Assembly: GCA_018267275.1 (NCBI GenBank)
Contig: JAFDYV010000003.1
Location: 500,361-564,360, forward strand
DNA from: Bacteroidota bacterium
GTDB taxonomy: Bacteria > Bacteroidota > Bacteroidia > Cytophagales > Cyclobacteriaceae
Reading direction: 5' to 3'
DNA length: 64,000 nucleotides
Below are positions 279-15,616 of the stretch, one piece after another (position 1 is the first letter of the stretch; each line of letters opens with the position of its first letter). The position numbers and the translations under genes are program-made. Below the pieces are notes generated by a model. The model had not been told where the DNA came from, searched no databases, and saw only the letters and a list, made by a program, of their open reading frames with translations.

Positions 279-1091
279 ATGAAGTTAAGAACAATCTTGA
301 AAGGAAATTCAGTTGGCAGCTTGTTAGCGTTGTGGGGGATCATGTTTGGTGTGCTGGGCTTTGTAGCCATCGTGTACTTTTATATTTACCTCCCCAATGT
401 TACCAACCATGGAGAAATCATCAAAGTACCTGACCTTACCGGCCTCACCATGGAGGAGGCCACCAGGCGTGCAGAGGATTTTAAACTGCGTGTGGCCGTC
501 AACGATTCTGCCTATGCCGAAGATGCAAACCCGCTTGCAATCATCAAGCAGTTCCCCTCAGCGAACGAAACAGTAAAAAAAGACCGCACCATTTATGTGT
601 CTATCAACCGAGCCACCCCACCCTCATTACCCATGCCCGACATTTCAGAAAAAGGTTTGATCAATGCCGAAATGATTTTGAAAAGCAGCGAATTGAAACG
701 AGGCCGTTTGATGTATGAGCCTGACCCCTTCCGCGATTGGGTGAAAGAGGTACTGTACAATGGTAGGCCAATTTTGCCGGGCACACGCATCCCCAAAGGA
801 TCTGTGATTGACTTGGTTGTGGGCGATGGCGGTGGTGCCGCTGACTTTGTTGTCGGTAATCTGGTAGGCGACAATCTAAAAACAGCCATGCTTAAACTGG
901 AAGGATGGAACTTGCACTTGGGCAAAGTGGAAATACCCGATGGTGTGGACACTACAGGCGTGGTGCCATTCGTTTTTAAACAATTCCCCCTGCCGGGCGA
1001 TTCGGTGCGCATTGGTTACCCAATCGATTTGTGGATTGCACCCAAGGGTTACAAAGAACCCGAGGCAGAGGATGAAGAGACCAACAATTGA
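279..1091 (+). CDS. PASTA-domain-containing membrane-anchored protein
   Basis: N-terminal TM helix, then three repeats of the PASTA type (VPDLTGLTMEEA; MPDISEKGLINA; VGNLVGDNLKTA, each followed by ...Q.P..G..V...I.L.V); follows ddl as is usual in Bacteroidota. Confidence 0.85.
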   Translation: MKLRTILKGNSVGSLLALWGIMFGVLGFVAIVYFYIYLPNVTNHGEIIKVPDLTGLTMEEATRRAEDFKLRVAVNDSAYAEDANPLAIIKQFPSANETVKKDRTIYVSINRATPPSLPMPDISEKGLINAEMILKSSELKRGRLMYEPDPFRDWVKEVLYNGRPILPGTRIPKGSVIDLVVGDGGGAADFVVGNLVGDNLKTAMLKLEGWNLHLGKVEIPDGVDTTGVVPFVFKQFPLPGDSVRIGYPIDLWIAPKGYKEPEAEDEETNN

Positions 1092-1097
1092 TTTGTT

Positions 1098-3131
1098 TTG
1101 AGGAATTATCTTCTAACCATCAAAGCACAAAGGCGCGCAGAAGTTTTTTCTGTTGGGCGGATACTATTTTTGATTCTAACAGTCCAGGCAGCATATTGCC
1201 AAATAGAGCTTGCACCTATTTGGCGCACACCACCGCCCAACACCAGCTTTAAAAAAGAGATGCCCAACGCGCGCACCAGCGCGGCACTTACACCCATGTT
1301 GCTGCCTTTTTGGGACGACTTTTCGCTGAACAAATTTGACGGTCAGCGCAACACTGCGTACCCCAACGACACGCTATGGGAATACAGCCAGCGCGTGTGG
1401 GTGAACGACCACATGGGTATCAACCCACCATCTATTTACGTGGCTACTTTTGATGGCTACGATTCTTTGGGAAAGCCTTATGCAAAAAACGACATCTTGG
1501 CAAAAGGCTTTGCCGATAGGCTCACCTCTCGCCCCTTGCGCATGGACTTGGTAGCCCAAGCCAACAGAAAAAATGTATTCATGAGCTTCTTTTATCAATA
1601 CCAAGGGAACGGAGAGCCGCCCGACCAAGGTGATGTTTTGTACTTGTACTTTAAAGACAAGGATGGCATTTGGAATGAAGTGTGGCGGAAAGAAAATGAT
1701 GGCACTTTGGATAAAACAAAATTCGATACTGTCCGCTTAAAATTTGACGACAAGTATTTTCACCCCAAGTTTCAATTTCGATTTCAAAACTTTGGCCGGT
1801 TATCTGGCCCTTATGACACGTGGAATGTGGATTATGTGTATGTGAGCAATGGCTCTTTGCTATATCAACCACCAACACCTATTGAGTTGCCCTATAAAGA
1901 CTTCCCCGATCGGGCAATTTCTGCGAGTGCCTCTTCTTTGTTTGTTGATTTTCAATCAATCCCCGTAAAACATTTTCAGTTAAGTCCAGCATCATTGACA
2001 CAAAAACCGCATTTTACCATCACTAATCGAAGAAAAGATCAAATCTTTAATCGACAAAATCCAAGCTCTCAAGGATTTGGATATAGCTCATCAGTAAAAA
2101 TTACTCGAACCGTTTTCAACGGCTCGAACATCCAAAACATTCAACTTACTAGTAATGAAAAGACCGATAAAATACTTTTCTATAATGAACCTCTGGTTTT
2201 TGAAGTCACATCACTACCAACCACTGAATTGAATTCCATTGATACAGCTGTAAGAAAAATGGTTTTTGATTTCAAGTTTAGCATCGTGCCAGGCGACAAC
2301 ACTCCTAAAAAATTCGATGGCAGCCAAGATGATGGCGATTTTGACACTGTAGCCTACAAACGAATCGACTTCCGCAGAAACGATACCACTCGTGCAACTT
2401 ACATTTTAGATGACTACTACGCCTACGATGACGGAACTGCAGAATATGGGGCACGTATCAATGGCATTGGTACGCAACTCGCGTATGAATTCAATCTAAA
2501 AACGCCTGACCCTGATATTTTGATTGCCTTCGATTATTACTTCCCCCCTTTTGGCGATGAGTCGACCCAATCAGTCCAGTTTCATGTGCTGGGTGCCCTC
2601 ACCGGCCAGGAGACCGATTATTTGTATCGGAGGAATACACAAATCAAAAGATCGACCAACAATGTTTTTGTGAGGGAAAACCTGGCCTCCCCGGTAACTG
2701 TGCAAGGCAAGTTTTACATTGGCTGGCGCTTACTATCCAATGCACTTATTCCGGTTGGTTTAGATAGAAGTTTTGACTCGGGCAGTAAAATGTTTTTCAA
2801 TAGTTCGGGAGATTGGATACAGAACAAAGACTTGAAAGGTAGTTTGATGATACGGCCCGTGTTTATCCGCAAAGGGCAGGCACCGCCACCGGTGGCAGTC
2901 GCAGACGAGCCTGTTGCCGCGCTTTATCCCAATCCAAATACCGGCATTTTTTACCTTCCCATCGCTGCCGAACAAATCTCAATTGTGGATGTAACCGGCC
3001 GGCCAGTATCCACCTCTGTAGAAGAAGATCAAGAACAAAAAAAGGTTTCTGCCGACATTCCGATGGGTATCTACGTTGTCAGATATTTTGATGGCAAGTG
3101 GCGGTCAACAAAAATGTTGGTTAAGCCTTAA
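1098..3131 (+). CDS. T9SS type A sorting-domain (CTD) secreted protein of unknown function
   Basis: Signal-peptide-like segment, LPFWDDFS motif, C-terminal LYPNPNTG...G.YVVR...KMLVK CTD; TTG start uncertain. Confidence 0.75.
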   Translation: MRNYLLTIKAQRRAEVFSVGRILFLILTVQAAYCQIELAPIWRTPPPNTSFKKEMPNARTSAALTPMLLPFWDDFSLNKFDGQRNTAYPNDTLWEYSQRVWVNDHMGINPPSIYVATFDGYDSLGKPYAKNDILAKGFADRLTSRPLRMDLVAQANRKNVFMSFFYQYQGNGEPPDQGDVLYLYFKDKDGIWNEVWRKENDGTLDKTKFDTVRLKFDDKYFHPKFQFRFQNFGRLSGPYDTWNVDYVYVSNGSLLYQPPTPIELPYKDFPDRAISASASSLFVDFQSIPVKHFQLSPASLTQKPHFTITNRRKDQIFNRQNPSSQGFGYSSSVKITRTVFNGSNIQNIQLTSNEKTDKILFYNEPLVFEVTSLPTTELNSIDTAVRKMVFDFKFSIVPGDNTPKKFDGSQDDGDFDTVAYKRIDFRRNDTTRATYILDDYYAYDDGTAEYGARINGIGTQLAYEFNLKTPDPDILIAFDYYFPPFGDESTQSVQFHVLGALTGQETDYLYRRNTQIKRSTNNVFVRENLASPVTVQGKFYIGWRLLSNALIPVGLDRSFDSGSKMFFNSSGDWIQNKDLKGSLMIRPVFIRKGQAPPPVAVADEPVAALYPNPNTGIFYLPIAAEQISIVDVTGRPVSTSVEEDQEQKKVSADIPMGIYVVRYFDGKWRSTKMLVKP

Positions 3132-3165
3132 ATCACTACATTAGAGTCTTAATCCACTTACAACT

Positions 3166-4101
3166 ATGAAGTCTTCTTTGTGGTATTTTACGCTATTGAT
3201 ATCATGCTGTATAACAACCCTTGTTGACGCGCAAATCAAAACACCGTTAGAAGGTCGCTGGGATTTAACCATTACAAAAAACGGACAACAATTGCCTTCA
3301 TGGTTGGAAGTGCGGCATTCGGGAAACAATACCCTGGTAGGCAGATTTGTATATGCTTTTGGCAGTGCCCGCCCCATTGCTGAAGTGAAATTAAAAGACG
3401 GCAAGTTTTATTTTTCTATCCCACCACAGTGGGAAAAAGGCGAGCGTTGGATGGACTTTGAAGGAAGTTTAGAAAACGACAACATTATAAATGGCACAAT
3501 GACTTACGTGGACGGTAACAAGTCTTCGTTTGTGGGAGTGCGAGCACCTGCACTGTTGCGCGAAAAGCCAATCGAATGGAGTACTCCTATTCAATTGCTG
3601 AACGGAAAGGATTTGACAGGCTGGCATGCGGAGGGAAAAAATCAATGGATAGTGGAGAATGGCGTGTTAAAAAGTCCACAATCAGGCGCCAATCTTTTTA
3701 CTGATCAGAAGTTTACAGACTTTAAACTGCACATAGAGTTTCGTTATCCGAAAGGAAGCAACAGTGGTGTGTACTTGCGCGGCCGCTACGAAGTGCAAGT
3801 AACCGACAGTAAAGGGCTAGAAGCGTGGGACGACCAGTTTAGTGGCGTCTACGGATTTCTGCAACCCAACCGCATGGTAGCAAAAGATGCAGGCGAGTGG
3901 CAGTCATTTGACATTACCTTGGTAGGACGAACCGTTACAGTAGTCGCTAATGATGTGACTGTTATTTGCGATCAAATTATTCCCGGCATTACAGGTGGTG
4001 CCATTGATAGCAAAGAAGGCGAGCCGGGACCCATTTTTTTACAAGGCGACCACGGCCCGATTGAATATCGGAACATTGTGATTACACCCGCGAAGAACTG
4101 A
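3166..4101 (+). CDS. DUF1080 / 3-keto-disaccharide hydrolase family protein
   Basis: LLNGKDLTGW, FTDFKLHIEF, NSGVYLRGRYEVQV, GEWQSFDI, LQGDHGPIEYRNI motifs; signal peptide. Confidence 0.85.
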   Translation: MKSSLWYFTLLISCCITTLVDAQIKTPLEGRWDLTITKNGQQLPSWLEVRHSGNNTLVGRFVYAFGSARPIAEVKLKDGKFYFSIPPQWEKGERWMDFEGSLENDNIINGTMTYVDGNKSSFVGVRAPALLREKPIEWSTPIQLLNGKDLTGWHAEGKNQWIVENGVLKSPQSGANLFTDQKFTDFKLHIEFRYPKGSNSGVYLRGRYEVQVTDSKGLEAWDDQFSGVYGFLQPNRMVAKDAGEWQSFDITLVGRTVTVVANDVTVICDQIIPGITGGAIDSKEGEPGPIFLQGDHGPIEYRNIVITPAKN

Positions 4102-4117
4102 TCAAGCCGCCTGACGG

Positions 4118-4939
4118 CTAGTGAGAAAAAAACTCAACCGCAATTTGATTGATGAGTTTTGGCCTTTCGCGAAACACTGCGTGTGAAGTGTTGGGCAACA
4201 CACAAAACTGACTGTTTTTTATCATGCGGTGCATTTCCAGCGCATGTTCAATCCGTATAAGGTCACGGTCGCCCTGTGCAATCAACACTGGTATGTTGAT
4301 TCGCTTCAAAATGTCAGGCGAAAAATACTGGGACTGATACCACATATGCATCGCATCTCGGTAGTATTTCTTCCAATCTCTGGGTAATACTTTCTGGTAG
4401 TTCGCAATCCAGTTCTTGCTTTTCTTCTCCCAATCTGTCAAAGAGGCGGGTTTAACATTTTTCAAATTTGTGCCTGCCAAGTTATAGTTGGCCCCAACGG
4501 CAATCACTTTCCTTACTTTATCTGGCCTACCCTCGGCTAGCAAAAGCCCAATGATACCGCCATCACTCCAACCCATTACGTAAGTACCATCAAGGTGAAG
4601 TTGATCTATCAAGGCTGCCATATATTTCGCCAGTAAGGGATAGCTCATACTATCCGCCAATTCCGAGCGGCCTTGGCCTGGCGTATCAGGCAGAATCACG
4701 CGAAAGTGCTTGGACAACTCTGGAATACACAACTTAAAATCAGCAATGCTTCCCATACCGCCCTGTAGCAGCAGCAACGGTGTGCCTTTGCCATATTCTT
4801 CGTAGTAGATTTTTGTATTGAAAATCGAAAGATACGTGCCATTATTTGAGCCGTAGACGATGTTAGATTGCCCTTGCGCAAAAAGCGACATGCACAAACT
4901 AACTACAATGGCAACTGCGAATTTCATATTGTGTATCAA
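4118..4939 (-). CDS. Alpha/beta hydrolase, secreted
   Basis: YYEEYGKGTPLLLLQGG, nucleophile GWSDGG, GDRD and terminal His (NTSHAV); signal peptide. Confidence 0.85.
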   Translation of the reverse strand: MIHNMKFAVAIVVSLCMSLFAQGQSNIVYGSNNGTYLSIFNTKIYYEEYGKGTPLLLLQGGMGSIADFKLCIPELSKHFRVILPDTPGQGRSELADSMSYPLLAKYMAALIDQLHLDGTYVMGWSDGGIIGLLLAEGRPDKVRKVIAVGANYNLAGTNLKNVKPASLTDWEKKSKNWIANYQKVLPRDWKKYYRDAMHMWYQSQYFSPDILKRINIPVLIAQGDRDLIRIEHALEMHRMIKNSQFCVLPNTSHAVFRERPKLINQIAVEFFSH

Positions 4940-5110
4940 GTTAACGTGAAGTTACGCCCTAAATGTTTGAAATTATGCTTCGCTCTTGCGGAAATCCTTT
5001 AACGAAATGAACAACACTGTTTGCAGACTTGCGAATGCAAAACCGACTCCAATTAATTCCGTTTCACGCTGTAATGTCGTAGCCTCACTTGCTACTGATT
5101 AGGCACATAT

Positions 5111-7555
5111 ATGACCAAAAAATTCTTTTTCCTTCCGTTTTTATTTTTTGCCACCACAAGCTATGCCCAAGTTATTTCGGGCAAGATTGTCGATAGCCTA
5201 AAGCGCGAGCCAGTAGCCTTTGCGAACATCGTGCTGGCTGATGGCATACACGGCACCACCTCAGATATCGAAGGTAACTTTAAGCTCTCTGTGCCTGCAG
5301 GTTACCAGCAGGCCATCACCATTTCGCACGTGAGCTATCAAAAAACAAAATTGCCTTTGTCATTTTTTAACAAATATCGTGTGATTAAACTAAAGCCAAG
5401 CGAAATGGTGTTGAGTGAGGTAGTTGTGAAAGCAGGAGAAAATCCGGCCTTCCGCATTATTCGCAATGCCGTAAAAAATAAAAGCCGTAATAATCCGGAC
5501 AACTTAGAAAGCTACCAATATCATTCTTACAACAAGTTCATCATCAAACCCAGCGAGATGAGCGACCCCTACAAAAAAAGAGTAGACAGTTTACGAAATG
5601 GATCAATTGCTGCAACAAAAAAGCAAAAAGAGCTATTGCAGTGGGATAGCATCAGTAGCCGCATCCACTTCTTTATGACGGAATCAGTCACCGAAAAAAA
5701 AGTGATTAACCCCGGTCGTCAAAAAGAAACACTCATCGGCTTTAAAGCATCAGGCTTTAAAAGTCCGCTGTTTGCCAACGTGGCGACTGATTACCAACCC
5801 TTTTCATTTTACAATGACAAGATCTCACTGTTGGGAAAGGATTTCTTGAACCCCATCAGCAAAAACTCAGAGCAACGCTACGAATTTTACCTTACCGACA
5901 CCACCTACATTGAAAACGATACAGTGTATGTGATTCAATATGAACCCAAGCGCGGCAAGCTCATCACCGGCCTTAAGGGAATGGTGAGCATCAGCACCAA
6001 CGGCTGGGCCATCAAAAATATCATCGCATCCTCTTCGGATTCGCTTGCTTTAACCGGTATCCGCATTCAACAAAATTATGAACAGGTTAATGGCCAATGG
6101 TTTCCCGCACAGCTTAACACGGACATCGACTTTTACAATTTGAAGCAATTTGGCAGCTATATTATTGCGCAACACCGCAGCTTCATCAAAGATGTTAAAT
6201 TCAACCCTGCTTTAAACAAATCGGAGTTTGGTGACATCAAAGTTGACCTCTCACCCCCTGCCGGAGTATTGAATGAAGCAAACATTGAGAAATTCAGAAT
6301 TGCACCTTTGGATACAAAGGAGGCCAAGACGTACGTGACCATCGACTCTGCAATGCAGAAATTTCAATGGCTGGACAAAACCATGGAAGCGCTTGCCACC
6401 AACGCTCTTCCTATTGGACCTTTCGATTTCGACCTGACGCGATTGGTGCACATCAATCAATATGAAGGTTTTCGGTTGGGCGGTGGTTTGTACACCAGCA
6501 ACCGTTTTTTGACATGGCTGCGTGTAGGCGGGTATGGTGCGTATGGATTCAAAGACCAGCAATGGAAGTATGGTGCTGAGGTGCGTTTCAACCTCAATCC
6601 CAACCGCGATTTTGGGGTAACATTTCAGTACATCAACGATATCTACGAAACTGGTTATGCACACCAAAATGTACAGCGCGATTTTACCAATGCCAACGAA
6701 GGTCTGCGCAGACTGGTGAGCGAACGCTTCGATAAAATCGAATCGTACCGGGTAGATGTAAGTTACCGTGTACTACCGCGGGTACACGCCTCAGCCTTTG
6801 TGTCGAAAAACAACATAACACCTACTTACGATTATACCCTCACGTTGAACGGGGAGACACTCAATCGCTTTGCCATTGGCGAAACAGGCTTGGCCCTGCG
6901 TTATTCGGGAAGTGAAAACTATATGCAGATTTCTGGTAAAAAAGTACTGTTGGGCAGAGAGTGGCCGATGGTATCAATCGGCTACGCAAGGAGCATACAG
7001 GTGTGGGACGCGCAAAACTTTGATTACCAACGGCTGGATTTCTCCTCTAGGTTTCAGTTCAAGCACCGACCAAAAGGCAAGACGCGGTTGTTTGTTCATG
7101 CCGGCTGGGTGGACGGTGTTGCCCCCTATGGCCGGTTGTACAATGCCAGGGGCGCACAAGAAACACAAGCGATTTACGTTGACGAATATTTTCAAACCGT
7201 TGGTTTGTATGAGTTTGCCGCTTCGCGTTACGCCTCTGTTTTTTTCAATCACAATTTTGGCAATGTGTTCTATGATAATCGGTATAGCAAGCCTGAGTGG
7301 GTGGTTTACCACGCTTCGGGTATCGGTTGGCTTGACAATGCCAATGCCCATGCCAGTTCGCAAATCTCGTTGCAGTCTTTTGACAAAGGGTTTTTTGAAT
7401 CCGGCACCGGCTTCAACAACCTGCTTCGTTTCAAATATGCTAACGTGGCATACTTCGGTTTAGGTGCGGCTGTGTTTTACCGCTACGGAGCTTACCAATT
7501 TGAAAAGCAAACCAACAACCTGTTTTTTAGGGCCACGTTTAGTCTGGGATTCTGA
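5111..7555 (+). CDS. DUF5686 family outer-membrane protein with N-terminal carboxypeptidase-regulatory-like domain
   Basis: ISGKIVDS...EPVAFANI...GTTSDIEGNF...LSEVVV N-domain, INQYEGFRLG motif, beta-barrel-like C-terminus ending in Phe. Confidence 0.75.
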   Translation: MTKKFFFLPFLFFATTSYAQVISGKIVDSLKREPVAFANIVLADGIHGTTSDIEGNFKLSVPAGYQQAITISHVSYQKTKLPLSFFNKYRVIKLKPSEMVLSEVVVKAGENPAFRIIRNAVKNKSRNNPDNLESYQYHSYNKFIIKPSEMSDPYKKRVDSLRNGSIAATKKQKELLQWDSISSRIHFFMTESVTEKKVINPGRQKETLIGFKASGFKSPLFANVATDYQPFSFYNDKISLLGKDFLNPISKNSEQRYEFYLTDTTYIENDTVYVIQYEPKRGKLITGLKGMVSISTNGWAIKNIIASSSDSLALTGIRIQQNYEQVNGQWFPAQLNTDIDFYNLKQFGSYIIAQHRSFIKDVKFNPALNKSEFGDIKVDLSPPAGVLNEANIEKFRIAPLDTKEAKTYVTIDSAMQKFQWLDKTMEALATNALPIGPFDFDLTRLVHINQYEGFRLGGGLYTSNRFLTWLRVGGYGAYGFKDQQWKYGAEVRFNLNPNRDFGVTFQYINDIYETGYAHQNVQRDFTNANEGLRRLVSERFDKIESYRVDVSYRVLPRVHASAFVSKNNITPTYDYTLTLNGETLNRFAIGETGLALRYSGSENYMQISGKKVLLGREWPMVSIGYARSIQVWDAQNFDYQRLDFSSRFQFKHRPKGKTRLFVHAGWVDGVAPYGRLYNARGAQETQAIYVDEYFQTVGLYEFAASRYASVFFNHNFGNVFYDNRYSKPEWVVYHASGIGWLDNANAHASSQISLQSFDKGFFESGTGFNNLLRFKYANVAYFGLGAAVFYRYGAYQFEKQTNNLFFRATFSLGF

Positions 7556-11800: not shown

Positions 11801-12404
11801 CGCGGGCGAGCGCAAAAAAGAGCAGCCATTAGAGTTGGTGGAAGGACAGGGATACATTCACTATCAAAAAGCCTCGTTGATATTCTTTGCTCTGCAAGAT
11901 TACATCAGCGAAGACAGCGTGAATGCGGCATTCCGCAGGTTTAACCAAACGTGGCGATTTAAAGATGCCCCCTACCCTACTTCTGCTGACTTGCTGAAAG
12001 AAATCAGAAAAGTGACACCCGATAGTTTACAATACCTCATCAAAGATATGTTTGAAACCATCACACTCTTTGAAAACAAAACCGACTCTGCATTCTACAA
12101 AGAGAAAAGCAAGAACGAGTTTGAGGTAACGGTGTATGCATCTGCAGAAAAATTGCGTGCCGATAGCACCGGCATCGAAACGCCCATTGCCATCAACGAT
12201 TGGATTGATGTGGGTGTGTACGGCAAAAACAAAGCGGGTAAAGACAGCCTGCTGTATTTGAAGAAACACAAAATCACGCAAAAGCAAAACCAGTTTAAGA
12301 TTTTGGTGAAAGCTAAACCGCGCAAAGCCGGCATTGACCCGCTGCACAAGTTGATTGATAGGCATTCGAACGATAATACCAAGGGCCTGGTGGCGAAGAG
12401 GTAG
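8820..12404 (+). CDS. ABC-2 type permease fused to M1-family (gluzincin) aminopeptidase domain
   Basis: About 590 aa polytopic membrane region in two permease-like halves, then soluble domain with HEVAHQWWG...LSESMSQY zinc motif. Confidence 0.85.
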   Translation: MFKNIFLFELKYRKARAANYIYFAIMFLLCFLAVTTDVVQIGGAVGQVKENAPIVIGQMIAIMGFFMTLISSAIMGVAVLRDFEHNTEAILFSTPIKKFHYLMGRFWGSYVVLLLVAASLPIAFMLGDLWPMREADRLLPFNLATYWQPYFIFVVPNMFFTGAIFFASGALSRKSIVIYTQGILLLVLYIGTSSLLRDLEQKEIAALCDPFGVRAFSFYTQYWTPGERNSLQIPLDGYILYNRLLWMGVGIVILIINHFAFSFNVVRSSVFRPRAVKDEALRIKPEETKIPVAQQFANLSTHIGQLVKLTLFYFKMVFKEIPFIAIVISGILLLFVNAINLNELFGTSSYPTTYTILGLLSGFNLFFLIIAVLYSGELVWKERAVNLNLIIDAMPMPDFIALISKFLGMLLVYIVLIAGLIVAGMLVQISYGYYNFELGIYIGTLYTETLAFLVLYTMLSMFIHVMVNNKFLGFAVAVAFFILVSFFGQIGLEHPLFQFGSGSLGTYSDMNVYGHFVTPFSWFQVYWFAFVVLLFGIAVVFSSRGSEDVISMRWKAGKLRLSKQLVTLIVCAVAVFLSSGFYIYYNTNVVNRYTNKDGREGLQVDYEKTLKKYEFIAQLRITDVNLKVDLYPSKRDYSAEGYFILKNKTNEPISDIHIQENALNYIKTEKLEFNRKFGVKEKFDRFKYTIYQLAEPLQPGDSVQMNFKTSFVTNGFTDNNASTTSVIYNGTFFNNTYLPSLGYNENYEMSDDNDRKEKKLPEKERMMERNDPRGLSQSLFGDDADHVRFEIVLSTDKDQLAIAPGYLQKSWEEKDRKYFQYKMDAPMCNFFSIISARYEVKRDKWNDVNLEIYYHKGHEYNLDKMMEGMKDALNYYTKHFSPYQYRQVRIMEFPRYATFAQSFANTIPFSEGIGFIAKIDDPDKDIDYVYYVTAHEVAHQWWGHQVMEAGVKGNAMLSESMSQYSALMVLKHKFTPEIIERYLKYELDRYLSGRAGERKKEQPLELVEGQGYIHYQKASLIFFALQDYISEDSVNAAFRRFNQTWRFKDAPYPTSADLLKEIRKVTPDSLQYLIKDMFETITLFENKTDSAFYKEKSKNEFEVTVYASAEKLRADSTGIETPIAINDWIDVGVYGKNKAGKDSLLYLKKHKITQKQNQFKILVKAKPRKAGIDPLHKLIDRHSNDNTKGLVAKR

Positions 12405-12425
12405 ATTTAATTATTAGGTGAAATA

Positions 12426-12455
12426 AAAATCCTCAGGCGCATGCTTGGGGATTTT
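12426..12455. terminator. Probable bidirectional intrinsic terminator
   Basis: aaaatcctcag...ttggggatttt hairpin with A/T tails between convergent genes. Confidence 0.55.
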
Positions 12456-12523
12456 CAACTTTCGGGTAGAACAGACTAATTTCTTACGCTACCCTAACCA
12501 AGTAACGAGAGCTTCAACTGATT

Positions 12524-13180
12524 TTAACTTTGTATTTCTCTTCTCAGTTGACCCAACAAGTTTCGATATAAAGAACTTAAAAGTACGAACATTAGCCTTT
12601 CATCACTACTAACTTTAGCATCCCAACCATAAGCCATTCCATTCTTTTGGATTTCTAACCAATTCTTATGAAGTGTTTGTAGTTCTGTTGGATATTTTTT
12701 CCAGTCAACGGTATATTCTCTCAATGCCAAAACAGCTAGAATGTCGTCACAGTTTCTTAAAACTGCTTCACTTCCGTGCAATCTTAAGATGTTAAAATCA
12801 TTATTTAATTGCAATGAAATTTGATATTCATGATTAAGCTTAACTAATTTTTCAAAACTATCTTCTAGGGTTTGAATTTGAGAATCAGTTGCAACCTGCT
12901 GAGTTAATTCGCCAATACTTAGGATTTCTGCAATAATTGGTGATTGTGTCCGACTAACCGAACCTAAAAATATTTGATACGCTGCCACTTTATACTCAAA
13001 CTGCTTTTGTTTTCTATCGTTTTCAGCCTCGATTCTGGACGTGAAATGAAATCCGATTATAGACAATACTGCTGCCAATAGGGCAGTTAGTGTAGAAATA
13101 ACGATCTGTTCAAATATTTTTCTTCTTCCAATTTTAGATACTTTCATGGACTTTTTTTTCATGAAATACAAATTTTGCAT
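12524..13180 (-). CDS. Hypothetical protein, single N-terminal TM helix, AT-rich
   Basis: 218-aa ORF, TM IVISTLTALLAAVLSIIGFHF, helical body; start could be 13180, 13162 or 13147. Confidence 0.65.
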   Translation of the reverse strand: MQNLYFMKKKSMKVSKIGRRKIFEQIVISTLTALLAAVLSIIGFHFTSRIEAENDRKQKQFEYKVAAYQIFLGSVSRTQSPIIAEILSIGELTQQVATDSQIQTLEDSFEKLVKLNHEYQISLQLNNDFNILRLHGSEAVLRNCDDILAVLALREYTVDWKKYPTELQTLHKNWLEIQKNGMAYGWDAKVSSDERLMFVLLSSLYRNLLGQLRREIQS

Positions 13181-13184
13181 TCAG

Positions 13185-13682
13185 TTATCTCCCGCTTGGC
13201 GTTTTCTCAACTTTCATGATCTTATTATAATCTGAAAACATAGCTCTCAACAACTTGCTGCCATTATGGCCAAGGCCTTTGTTTTCGAGTCCCAAGTCCC
13301 GCCTCATTTCAAACATTATTTTTGACAACAATTCTAGCATGCGCTTTGTATTGCTCTCCTGGCCTTCATTTGTGGCGTAGATATATTGAAAAAAATCCGC
13401 AAACGCGTTTATGACTCCTGGTGAACCATAAAGAATATACTTTTTATAAAACTCATAAAGTTTATTTATTACATCGCCACTGATGCTTTCATTGGCTTTA
13501 CTTTTCTCAAAAATATCTATGATTAGATTAACGAAATGTTGGTATAGCTCCCGTCTTTCTTTGTGAACATCGCTTAGTAATTCTTTTCTCTTTTCAATAT
13601 TCTGTTTTATCAAATAGCCTATTCCTGCACCAATTAATGGCAAAACGATTGAAAGAAGTGTAATGATTGTTGTTGCTGTCAT
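13185..13682 (-). CDS. Hypothetical protein, single N-terminal TM helix, AT-rich
   Basis: ATG at 13682 gives 165 aa, TM IITLLSIVLPLIGAGIGYLI, ends MRRDLG...; stop 4 nt before the next ATG. Confidence 0.7.
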   Translation of the reverse strand: MTATTIITLLSIVLPLIGAGIGYLIKQNIEKRKELLSDVHKERRELYQHFVNLIIDIFEKSKANESISGDVINKLYEFYKKYILYGSPGVINAFADFFQYIYATNEGQESNTKRMLELLSKIMFEMRRDLGLENKGLGHNGSKLLRAMFSDYNKIMKVEKTPSGR

Positions 13683-13760
13683 AAATATCAAAAATCGAAA
13701 TTTCGCCTTGTGCTCACATTTTTGCTCATACAAATTTCAATTTATCACATTCGTCCTATT

Positions 13761-13891
13761 CCGGCAAGGATTGCAGCGGATACCCCGGCAGTGGCGGAGG
13801 ACGCGCGGCATAAGCCGTGGCACGACTTAGAGTCGTGCCACGGCTACGGAAGATGGCTGGCAAAGGGTTATCCGCCTCCGCTACACTCCGG
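13761..13891. repeat. About 130-bp imperfect palindromic element with perfect 15-bp central hairpin
   Basis: AGCCGTGGCACGACT-tag-AGTCGTGCCACGGCT (13813-13845) plus outer complementary arms (13761-13800 vs 13865-13891). Confidence 0.7.
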
Positions 13892-13972
13892 TGGGTAAAC
13901 CGCCAAACGCTCCACCCCATTTTTCTTTCCCCCAATAAACTGTATCTTTACAGCCCTAATACAAAACTATTT

Positions 13973-14182
13973 ATGGAGACGATATTTTTGATTGGAATGC
14001 CAAGTGGTTGGGAGTGGTTCATCATCGGGCTTTTTGTGCTGGTGTTCTTTGGCGCCAAAAAAATACCCGAATTTGCAAAAGGACTGGGCAAGGGCATCCG
14101 CGAGTTTAAAGATGCCGTAAAGGACGTGAAGAAGGAAGTGGACGATGCTGGCAAAGAAGTGCCCAAGATTGACGAAAAATAA
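13973..14182 (+). CDS. tatA: Twin-arginine translocase TatA/TatE subunit
   Basis: GMPSGWEWFII...FFGAKKIPEFAKGLGKGIREFKDA; ATG at 13973. Confidence 0.92.
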   Translation: METIFLIGMPSGWEWFIIGLFVLVFFGAKKIPEFAKGLGKGIREFKDAVKDVKKEVDDAGKEVPKIDEK

Positions 14183-15616
14183 GTGTTGAAGGCGTACGCA
14201 ACCTTTGCGCAAATCCAGCACGACCTCCATTCAAAAAAAATAACCTGCACCGCGTTGGTCAAACACTATTTGGCCAACATCGAAAGCAAAAAACACCTGA
14301 ACGTATTCTTAAGCGTGTATGCTGATGAGGCATTGGCGCGGGCAGCGGTTATTGACGAAAAAATCAATCGGGGAAATGCAGGTAAACTAGCGGGCCTTGT
14401 AGTGGGGCTGAAAGATGTGCTGTGCTATGAAAATCACCCGCTGCAAGCCAGCAGTAAAATTTTAGACGGCTTTGTGTCGCAGTTCAATGCCACAGCCGTG
14501 CAGAGATTGCTCGATGCCGATGCCATTATCATCGGCCGGCAAAACTGCGATGAATTTGCGATGGGCTCGTCCAATGAAAACTCTGCGTTTGGACCAACAC
14601 TCAACGACATTGACAATACGCGCGTACCGGGCGGCTCTTCGGGTGGCTCAGCCGTGGCCGTCATGGCCGATATGTGCCAAGTATCGCTGGGGTCTGACAC
14701 GGGTGGTTCGGTGCGGCAGCCTGCAGCCTTTTGTGGCATTGTAGGGTTGAAGCCCACATACTCGCGCATCTCGCGGCATGGGTTGATTGCCTATGGCTCT
14801 TCGTTTGATTGCATTGGCATTTTTTCGAAAAATATTGAAGACGCTGCGCTGGTGCTGGAAGTGATTGCTGGCGCAGATGAATATGACAGCACGGTATCGC
14901 AAACCCCTGTGCCAGCATTTTCGAGTTTACTATCCGCGGCCAGCGAAAAAAAATATCGCATCGCTTACATGCGCGATACGTTGCAATCGCCCGCGTTGCA
15001 ACCCGAAATAAAAACTGCGATTGAGAAATCGCTTGACCAATTAAAATTAGATGGTCACTCTGTAGCGGGTATTGAATTTCCGCTGAATGAATACGTGCTG
15101 CCAACGTATTACATTTTGGCTACTGCCGAGGCGAGTTCAAACCTGTCGCGCTACGATGGTGTTCGTTATGGTTACCGCAGCCCCAACACCACCGATTTGG
15201 AATCGATGTATAAAAAAACGCGAGCCGAGGGTTTTGGAAAAGAAGTGCAGCGAAGAATTTTGCTGGGCACTTACGTGTTGAGTGCGAGCTATTACGATGC
15301 CTACTACAACCAAGCCCAAAAAGTGCGCAGGCTCATCCGCGAAAAGCTGAAGGAGTTGCTGAAAGAATATGACTTCATCATCACTCCCACTACTCCCACC
15401 ACAGCATTTAAGTTGGGCGAACATTCCACCAATCCGGTAGAGATGTACTTGGCAGACTTATTTTCCGTTCAAGCAAATGTGGCGGGGCTGCCAGCCATTT
15501 CGCTGCCGTTGGGTACCGATAAAATTGGATTGCCCATGGGCGTGCAGGTAATGGCAGATGATTTTGAGGAAACAAAACTGTTTCATTTCTCAAAACAATT
15601 GATGAACTTGGCGTGA
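14183..15616 (+). CDS. gatA: Asp-tRNA(Asn)/Glu-tRNA(Gln) amidotransferase subunit A
   Basis: Amidase signature PGGSSGGSA...GSDTGGSVRQPAAFCG, SSNLSRYDGVRYG, GKEVQRRILLGTYVLS. Confidence 0.95.
   Translation: MLKAYATFAQIQHDLHSKKITCTALVKHYLANIESKKHLNVFLSVYADEALARAAVIDEKINRGNAGKLAGLVVGLKDVLCYENHPLQASSKILDGFVSQFNATAVQRLLDADAIIIGRQNCDEFAMGSSNENSAFGPTLNDIDNTRVPGGSSGGSAVAVMADMCQVSLGSDTGGSVRQPAAFCGIVGLKPTYSRISRHGLIAYGSSFDCIGIFSKNIEDAALVLEVIAGADEYDSTVSQTPVPAFSSLLSAASEKKYRIAYMRDTLQSPALQPEIKTAIEKSLDQLKLDGHSVAGIEFPLNEYVLPTYYILATAEASSNLSRYDGVRYGYRSPNTTDLESMYKKTRAEGFGKEVQRRILLGTYVLSASYYDAYYNQAQKVRRLIREKLKELLKEYDFIITPTTPTTAFKLGEHSTNPVEMYLADLFSVQANVAGLPAISLPLGTDKIGLPMGVQVMADDFEETKLFHFSKQLMNLA

Follow-up and report, generated by a model that had tools for sequence, protein, structure and literature searches.

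The stretch of DNA analyzed here (the window, 64,000 nucleotides) comes from a freshwater Cytophagales bacterium in which a native gene of outer-membrane type has been swapped for two small genes, A and B. Gene A (13185..13682, minus strand) encodes a 165-aa AbiN-like single-pass membrane protein and gene B (12524..13147, minus strand) a single-pass membrane protein of 207 aa. Both lie within a replacement segment of 1459 bp (12456..13914), delimited by blastn breakpoints against the related loci L073 and L080, which consists of B, A, and a GC-rich structured element of 170 bp (13745..13914, GC 0.61) located upstream of A. A hairpin with T/A runs (12426..12455), formed by an inverted repeat between the stop codon of the M1 gene and B, marks the left boundary of the segment.

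The longest reading frames at the locus, 12524..13180 for B and 13185..13733 for A, are both present and intact as tandem minus-strand ORFs, as described in the original prediction, but the 4-nt gap reported between them proved to be an artefact of choosing the longest ORF. An alignment of 25 homologues places the start of A at ATG 13682. The start of B is most likely ATG 13147, because an extra T found elsewhere puts the two upstream ATGs (13180 and 13162) out of frame and the protein is called at 207 aa in the database; with B starting at 13147, the family-supported gap between the genes is ∼37 nt. The extra T (an insertion at 13151) lies in a homopolymer directly upstream of the conserved start of B, which is T8 in the window (13152..13159; A8 on the coding strand) and T9 in four other metagenomes (X1, X2, X5, and X8). 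The ORF is open up to ATG 13180 in the window strain only, where T8 opens N-terminal extensions of B of 11 aa (from ATG 13180) and 5 aa (from ATG 13162).

Synteny and base composition of the segment

The segment is located in a gene order common to the window and its relatives (L073/L074 and L080/L081), namely ABC ATPase, ABC-2/M1, a slot, tatA, gatA, and SLT/LysM. The close relatives of the ABC-2/M1-peptidase protein are uncultured Cyclobacteriaceae-like Cytophagales, and the protein is 88 and 89% identical in L073/L074 and L080/L081, respectively. In both pairs the slot holds one minus-strand OMP-like gene of 235–268 aa, of which zero remnant was found in the 64-kb window. Homology in blastn comparisons with the relatives is lost at 12455–12458, directly past the hairpin, which is common to the window and the relatives (conserved in L073), and is regained at 13914–13915. 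Because of these breaks, the retained flanking synteny, and the missing OMP-like remnant, the region 12456–13914 is a strain-specific replacement of a native OMP-like gene. The comparison with close relatives that had been suggested as a check therefore came out in favor of a strain-specific segment, with A and B absent from the 88–89% relatives and the OMP-like gene there instead.

An acquired insert had originally been proposed from base composition. The G+C counts given (12/60 and 16/60 in the genes and 28/60 in the flank) are exact, and the region 12524–13682 (1159 bp; GC 0.341 as compared with 0.450 for the whole window) is the lowest-GC stretch of its size in the 64 kb (0.15% of positions, each overlapping 12524–13682). 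Foreign origin was nevertheless not taken as proven by low GC, since the alternative native gene in the slot of the relatives is equally GC-poor (0.34–0.36). What stands of the proposal is a strain-specific segment, which is proven by synteny and breakpoints and is not provable from GC alone.

The same A+B locus was found in a drinking-water metagenome at 99.4% identity, with both proteins identical and the DNA changes solely synonymous or non-coding. The assembler depth of the insert in this second metagenome is 18 as compared with 20–120 for the flanks, which come from several strain variants; assembler depths are crude, and the difference is consistent with an accessory segment. This second copy bears on the suggestion that A and B are functionless hitchhikers, that is, recently acquired neutral or decaying ORFs. 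Although the pair lacks attC sites and a recognizable promoter, and a length-polymorphic homopolymer lies near the start of B, both ORFs are intact with every family-invariant residue kept, and the proteins are identical in the second sample despite the DNA differences, which makes this explanation improbable.

Against L073, the left flank (11819–12455, the end of the M1 gene) is 86% identical and the right flank (13915–14600, tatA–gatA) is 96% identical, an asymmetry that could reflect recombination, with a tract that ends where the replaced segment lies. The gene order past M1 is different in L072 (JGI 3300042140; M1 protein 96% identical), and also in L075 and L082, which are more distant than L072. 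Since these three loci have other genes past M1, the 3′ junction of M1 is a recurrent rearrangement point in the lineage. The 3′ neighbors of ABC-2/M1 in these loci (81–96% identical) are a DUF4199 pair, a FabH-like gene, and an HD-domain gene.

The hairpin at 12426..12455 looks like a bidirectional terminator and was not called by the consensus terminator scan. No recognizable promoter for A or B was returned by consensus scans that included the Bacteroidetes TAnnTTTG motif, and the promoter and terminator scans were set aside as uninformative for the window.

The GC-rich element (13745..13914) contains a perfect 15-bp hairpin (13813–13827/13831–13845), identified with a repeat finder, within a longer imperfect palindrome, and its fold as single-stranded DNA has an energy of −45.7 kcal/mol (z = −4.4). 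It is absent from the relatives in blastn comparisons with L073 and L080. With no second copy in the window or any fetched locus and zero Rfam matches, it was rejected as a repeated element or known RNA, and the absence of AAC/GTT cores at the stem ends led to its rejection as a canonical attC. One metagenome assembly (L071) breaks exactly at the center of the palindrome, ending at 13821.

Architecture and relationship of the two proteins

The A family comprises 57 homologues with 33 invariant residues. Those of A include R43, R44, Y47, S87, P88, R127, and D129, and Y57, G125, S126, and D135 are among those of B. A and B each have a single hydrophobic N-terminal window, in agreement with the one N-terminal transmembrane (TM) helix per protein originally predicted. 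The AF2 model of A, built on the family alignment, is all-helical (pLDDT 81) with helices at residues 3–62, 69–82, 88–105, 112–129, and 139–160, such that a long first helix comprising the TM region and a stalk is followed by four further helices. The corresponding model of B is also all-helical (pLDDT 78), with a long first helix (TM and stalk) followed by six helices. The flanks of the TM helix in the A family have a mean Lys plus Arg count of 0.24 on the N side and 4.0 on the C side, a pattern present in 25/25 members. Because the N-terminal flanks are poor and the C-terminal flanks rich in these residues in all 25 members, A is predicted to adopt an N-out/C-in topology, with a short uncharged N terminus outside and the helical bundle in the cytoplasm. 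The flank charges of B are ambiguous with respect to membrane topology.

The PADLOC model for AbiN (PDLC02349) matches A with E = 7.4e-5 and 20.6 bits, aligning residues 45–119 with positions 46–116 of the 165-residue model, and is matched by 24 of the 25 A-family members (best E = 1.5e-7). The match is weak, collinear, and reproducible, and spans the central ∼43% of the model. Because it is partial, A is not filed as a member of AbiN and is treated as a putative variant within an AbiN-like superfamily, in which B would represent a more distant sister family; lactococcal AbiN appears to be the only characterized relative of this superfamily. B itself does not match the AbiN model, such that the PADLOC check proposed for the pair gave a partial match for A and none for B.

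A is also matched by phrog_8187 (E = 2.9e-6). Scans of the A protein and its family against Pfam and NCBIfam returned noise only. DUF4760 and the putative AbiC-type Pfam, which appear in the UniRef names of some cluster mates, were not among the matches listed for A (E ≤ 1) or for the 25 members (E ≤ 0.1), and the commonest Pfam in the family was DUF6680 (5/25 members, all with E ≥ 0.01). Structure comparison, another of the checks proposed, produced no significant fold match for either protein: a Foldseek search with the model of A gave nothing with E < 0.9 in the PDB, where 5XUA fell outside the 50 best matches, and nothing below E = 0.001 in BFVD (best E = 0.039), and the model of B gave nothing below E = 0.001 in the PDB. 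The best Foldseek matches of the two models were designed helical bundles and uncharacterized siphovirus proteins. Profile searches against PDB sequences returned nothing meaningful.

B has 12 close homologues, and its family amounts to 94 clusters among 1.84 billion representatives, all from short metagenome contigs. No Pfam, NCBIfam, or PADLOC family was assigned to B or its family; 4HB_MCP_1 was returned for two B members at E = 0.017, and phrog_4876 matches B with E = 0.0016. B is a member of a small orphan family whose kinship with A is distant.

The relationship between A and B was not visible in a pairwise BLASTP comparison (E = 0.43), and hhalign with shallow profiles aligned only the N-terminal 52 columns (probability 61%). 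Deep profiles, consisting of 64 A-family sequences including the Clostridia branch and 56 B-family sequences from the scan of 1.84 billion representatives, aligned over 141 columns with a probability of 80% and E = 1.4e-5. This alignment pairs the TM helices and the motifs RRExYQxFV/kxxAYxsFL, LYaSPxV/LxGSxxV, and IMxEMRkDLG/LvxqmRxEl, and these are exactly the three motif pairs from which a shared fold had been suggested; reversal of the sequences in either alignment reduced the probability to <1%. When the B-family HMM was applied to the ORFs of all fetched loci (2285), the only matches besides B genes were 36 A-family genes, and the reciprocal search with the A HMM matched only B genes beyond A. 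Taken together, the deep alignment, its reversed controls, and the reciprocal HMM matches indicate that A and B are distant homologues, with B looking like A plus two insertions.

Genomic contexts of the two families

A scan of species-representative genomes for the A family yielded 66 loci, which include many Bacteroidota genera at 45–60% identity, a branch at 25–34% identity composed mostly of Clostridia and other Bacillota, and three loci from other phyla. The neighbors of 62 A homologues are heterogeneous with no adjacent family conserved, and most of those in Bacteroidota are without a known domain.

The Bacteroidota homologues of A are often found in arrays of short co-oriented genes spaced by conserved structured repeats, as in Fulvivirga lutea (79% identity), where the repeat is 266 nt long, is present in 7 copies, and has TAAC...GTTA ends. 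In six A cassettes (L001, L005, L006, L008, L017, and L018), a 9-nt GTTnnnnnn sequence at the 5′ boundary and an nnnnnnAAC sequence just past the stop codon are complementary, as compared with ∼1.5% in a mismatched-pair control. Cassette-specific complementarity of this kind is the signature of attC × attC recombination in integrons. Judging from these boundaries, at least six Bacteroidota genomes carry a closer A homologue as an integron-type cassette.

Several of these loci have features of their own. The F. lutea array (L001; CP070608.1, 3773483–3785962, locus positions 965–7477) consists of single-gene cassettes with the attC-like repeat, which is unusually long, and includes two copies of an IS110-family element, which share 98% identity over the 300 nt compared and have the same insertion point, the 3′ end of a repeat. 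Insertion at the 3′ end of an attC-like repeat is a behavior known for IS1111-attC elements. The 266-nt repeat was also considered as a flank of the segment in the window and was rejected, the alignment being unconvincing. In Zobellia and Maribacter, a 64-aa mini-protein with two TM helices is encoded 8–9 nt upstream of A (L005:7798–7992 and L006:7797–7991) within the same GTTAGCAAC-bounded cassette; other A cassettes are without it. A Cyclobacteriaceae metagenome-assembled genome (L016:10940–12350) carries dense nested direct repeats ∼3 kb from its A homologue, with 7-nt units of the CCAGAAT/CCAGCAA type inside higher-order repeats of ∼270–360 nt.

The distant homologues of the Bacillota branch, from Clostridia, lie repeatedly within type I restriction-modification (R-M) operons with the order HsdM - A - HsdS - ... 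- HsdR - YgjP, often accompanied by RhuM or Fic genes. The A homologue of Maribacter sp. PR1 is directly 3′ of HsdS-HsdR-YgjP. Six type I R-M operons from Clostridia and Saccharibacteria metagenome-assembled genomes (L045, L050, L052, L059, L064, and L070) carry between one and three additional genes in the hsdM–hsdR interval, these being the A-family gene, RhuM, and a protein of 190–200 aa without an assigned family, and a YgjP-like metallopeptidase gene follows hsdR.

The B homologues likewise have no conserved partner and occupy other positions, some of which are not obviously defense-related. In L003/L004 the gene is flanked by a tyrosine integrase and by an Mrr_cat nuclease gene, in L002, L077, and L078 its neighbor is a divergent zinc-ribbon-like gene and the DNA is variable from ∼150 nt past the B stop codon, and in L083–L088 it follows a gene of 650 aa. 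A classical attC cassette is formed by the homologue in L089, where an integrase and an IS91-type transposase lie upstream of it, with GTTAGGTC located 17 nt upstream of the start codon, GACCTAAC overlapping the stop codon, and a GC-rich attC of ∼105 nt.

In the window, neither A, B, nor the two together show GTT.../...AAC complementarity, hence there is no attC boundary, and no cassette array or integron integrase adjoins the pair, the flanks being core genes that are syntenic in relatives. To judge from their homologues, A and B belong to the cassette pool, and in this genome they lie outside any integron and have no attC sites.

An origin of the two genes as the remnant of a prophage membrane module, such as a holin, superinfection-exclusion protein, or lysis regulator, would draw on the phrog_8187 and phrog_4876 matches of A (E = 2.9e-6) and B (E = 0.0016), on the weak similarity (best E = 0.039) to holins and uncharacterized siphovirus proteins in BFVD, and on scans of viral contigs, which found one A locus, on a predicted viral contig. 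The same scans gave zero B loci, however, and tblastn searches with A, B, and one Bacilli A homologue had zero matches in 50,697 phage and 72,556 plasmid records. As the 1.46-kb segment also holds no other phage genes and is flanked by core genes, such an origin is very improbable.

The original prediction treated A and B as a two-component membrane module. In its strongest form, the two proteins would build an obligate heteromeric membrane complex (sensor and effector, or toxin and antitoxin) in which each depends on the other. The genes are indeed tandem, co-oriented, and 37 nt apart, both are retained intact in the second metagenome, and as distant homologues their products could hetero-oligomerize. 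In tblastn searches, however, a B homologue was found within 8 kb of A in 0/66 A-family loci, with B detected solely in its own loci, and an A homologue stood beside B in none of about four distinct B contexts (loci L002–L004, L076–L078, and L083–L089). HMM searches of the loci gave one superfamily member each, the exceptions being the window and its near-identical twin locus. Because the families never co-occur outside these two loci, the A/B pairing is, on present genomic evidence, lineage-specific and represents two stacked single-gene modules, with no conserved two-component system. Each family moreover occurs as its own single-gene cassette, the neighbors of A are heterogeneous, and AbiN works as a single gene (PMC13064643), such that mutual dependence of A and B is unlikely to a marked degree. 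There is likewise little likelihood that a previously unrecognized AbiN superfamily, extending from Bacteroidota cassettes to Clostridia R-M operons, has here given rise to a heteromeric sensor-effector of A and B with a joint new specificity. The homologues thus occur singly, which by the refuting condition originally set counts against the pair, but the contexts in which they do so are those of mobile elements or defense and not housekeeping loci.

Proposed function and comparison with known systems

With moderate confidence, A and B are interpreted as two independent single-gene modules of the AbiN superfamily, probably abortive-infection or exclusion genes. The defense role originally proposed remains plausible and can now be given a putative name, with A matching the PADLOC AbiN model and its homologues embedded in R-M operons and in integron-type cassettes. 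Each protein would be tethered to the inner membrane by its one N-terminal helix, and the helical bundle of A, facing the cytoplasm, may sense either a product of the phage or a change brought about by infection. The protein would then shift its oligomeric state at the membrane, which could lead to loss of membrane integrity or to a block of an early membrane-linked step of infection, and the infection would be aborted or excluded. A would act alone, like AbiN, and B would do a similar job with another specificity. The membrane-permeabilizing step specifically is speculative and is proposed with lower confidence than a defense role in general.

It is also conceivable, if rather unlikely, that these are cassette-borne membrane proteins with a role apart from phage, for example in immunity to membrane-targeting interbacterial toxins, envelope stress, or sensing. 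Cassette arrays of Bacteroidota carry many varied genes without assigned function, and the helical bundles are similar to generic sensor bundles (4HB_MCP_1 with E = 0.017 in two B members; a sensor-like fold in AbiN). An Imm12 match (E = 0.047) would point to toxin immunity, but it is weak, was obtained for one member only, and reaches 14.1 bits against a cut-off of 25, and no toxin-like gene is adjacent in the window. The AbiN match and the position of homologues within type I R-M operons speak instead for a role in phage or DNA conflict.

Candidate single-gene defense systems with TM helices are now common, and a further putative example is not very surprising to a specialist. The interest of A and B lies more in the many natural variants and contexts that they provide for working out how minimal membrane-anchored proteins act. 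AbiN, an orphan since 1998, is now connected through profile matches to a family that is widespread in Bacteroidota (in cassettes) and Clostridia (in R-M operons), together with a rarer sister family.

AbiN is a single chromosomal gene of lactococci, active against two lactococcal phage groups (PMC13064643, a 2026 review; Prevots et al. 1998 therein). According to the same review, it acts by an unknown mechanism, and a helical fold resembling a sensor domain (PDB code 5XUA) is predicted for it (PMC13064643). Like AbiN, A is encoded by a single small gene (model length 165; A 165 aa) that is chromosomal and AT-rich, and the protein is predicted to be all-helical, with no enzymatic motif. The two differ in that the match is weak and confined to 43% of the model, at its center, and that their hosts are of different phyla; B is without a match to the AbiN model.

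AbiP and AbiC are single-gene systems in which an N-terminal TM anchor is joined to a soluble domain, the TM helix being required for the phenotype (PMC13064643). A and B share with them the one N-terminal TM helix, the helical extramembrane domain, and the single-gene organization, but A does not match the putAbiC-type Pfam or the PADLOC AbiC/AbiP models, and AbiP binds nucleic acid. The distant A homologues resemble R-M accessory genes such as RhuM and Fic, beside which they lie in the HsdM-HsdS interval, whereas no R-M genes adjoin the pair in the window.

Small defense systems are often encoded by integron cassettes, TM helices being present in about a third, and homologues of defense cassettes occur outside integrons without attC (10.1101/2024.07.02.601719; 10.1101/2024.07.02.601686). 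These phage-resistance integron cassettes (BRiCs) were characterized in Vibrio and enterobacteria, in contrast to the Cytophagales host of A and B, and the copy in the window has no attC, nearby integrase, or array, with no named BRiC shown to be homologous. A and B nevertheless resemble BRiCs as small one-gene systems, many of which are TM-bearing and without a known domain, and in having homologues both in and out of integrons, with those of A and B being true cassettes elsewhere. The locus would be an instance of cassette-type defense genes that have become fixed outside an integron by replacing a gene in a core neighborhood.
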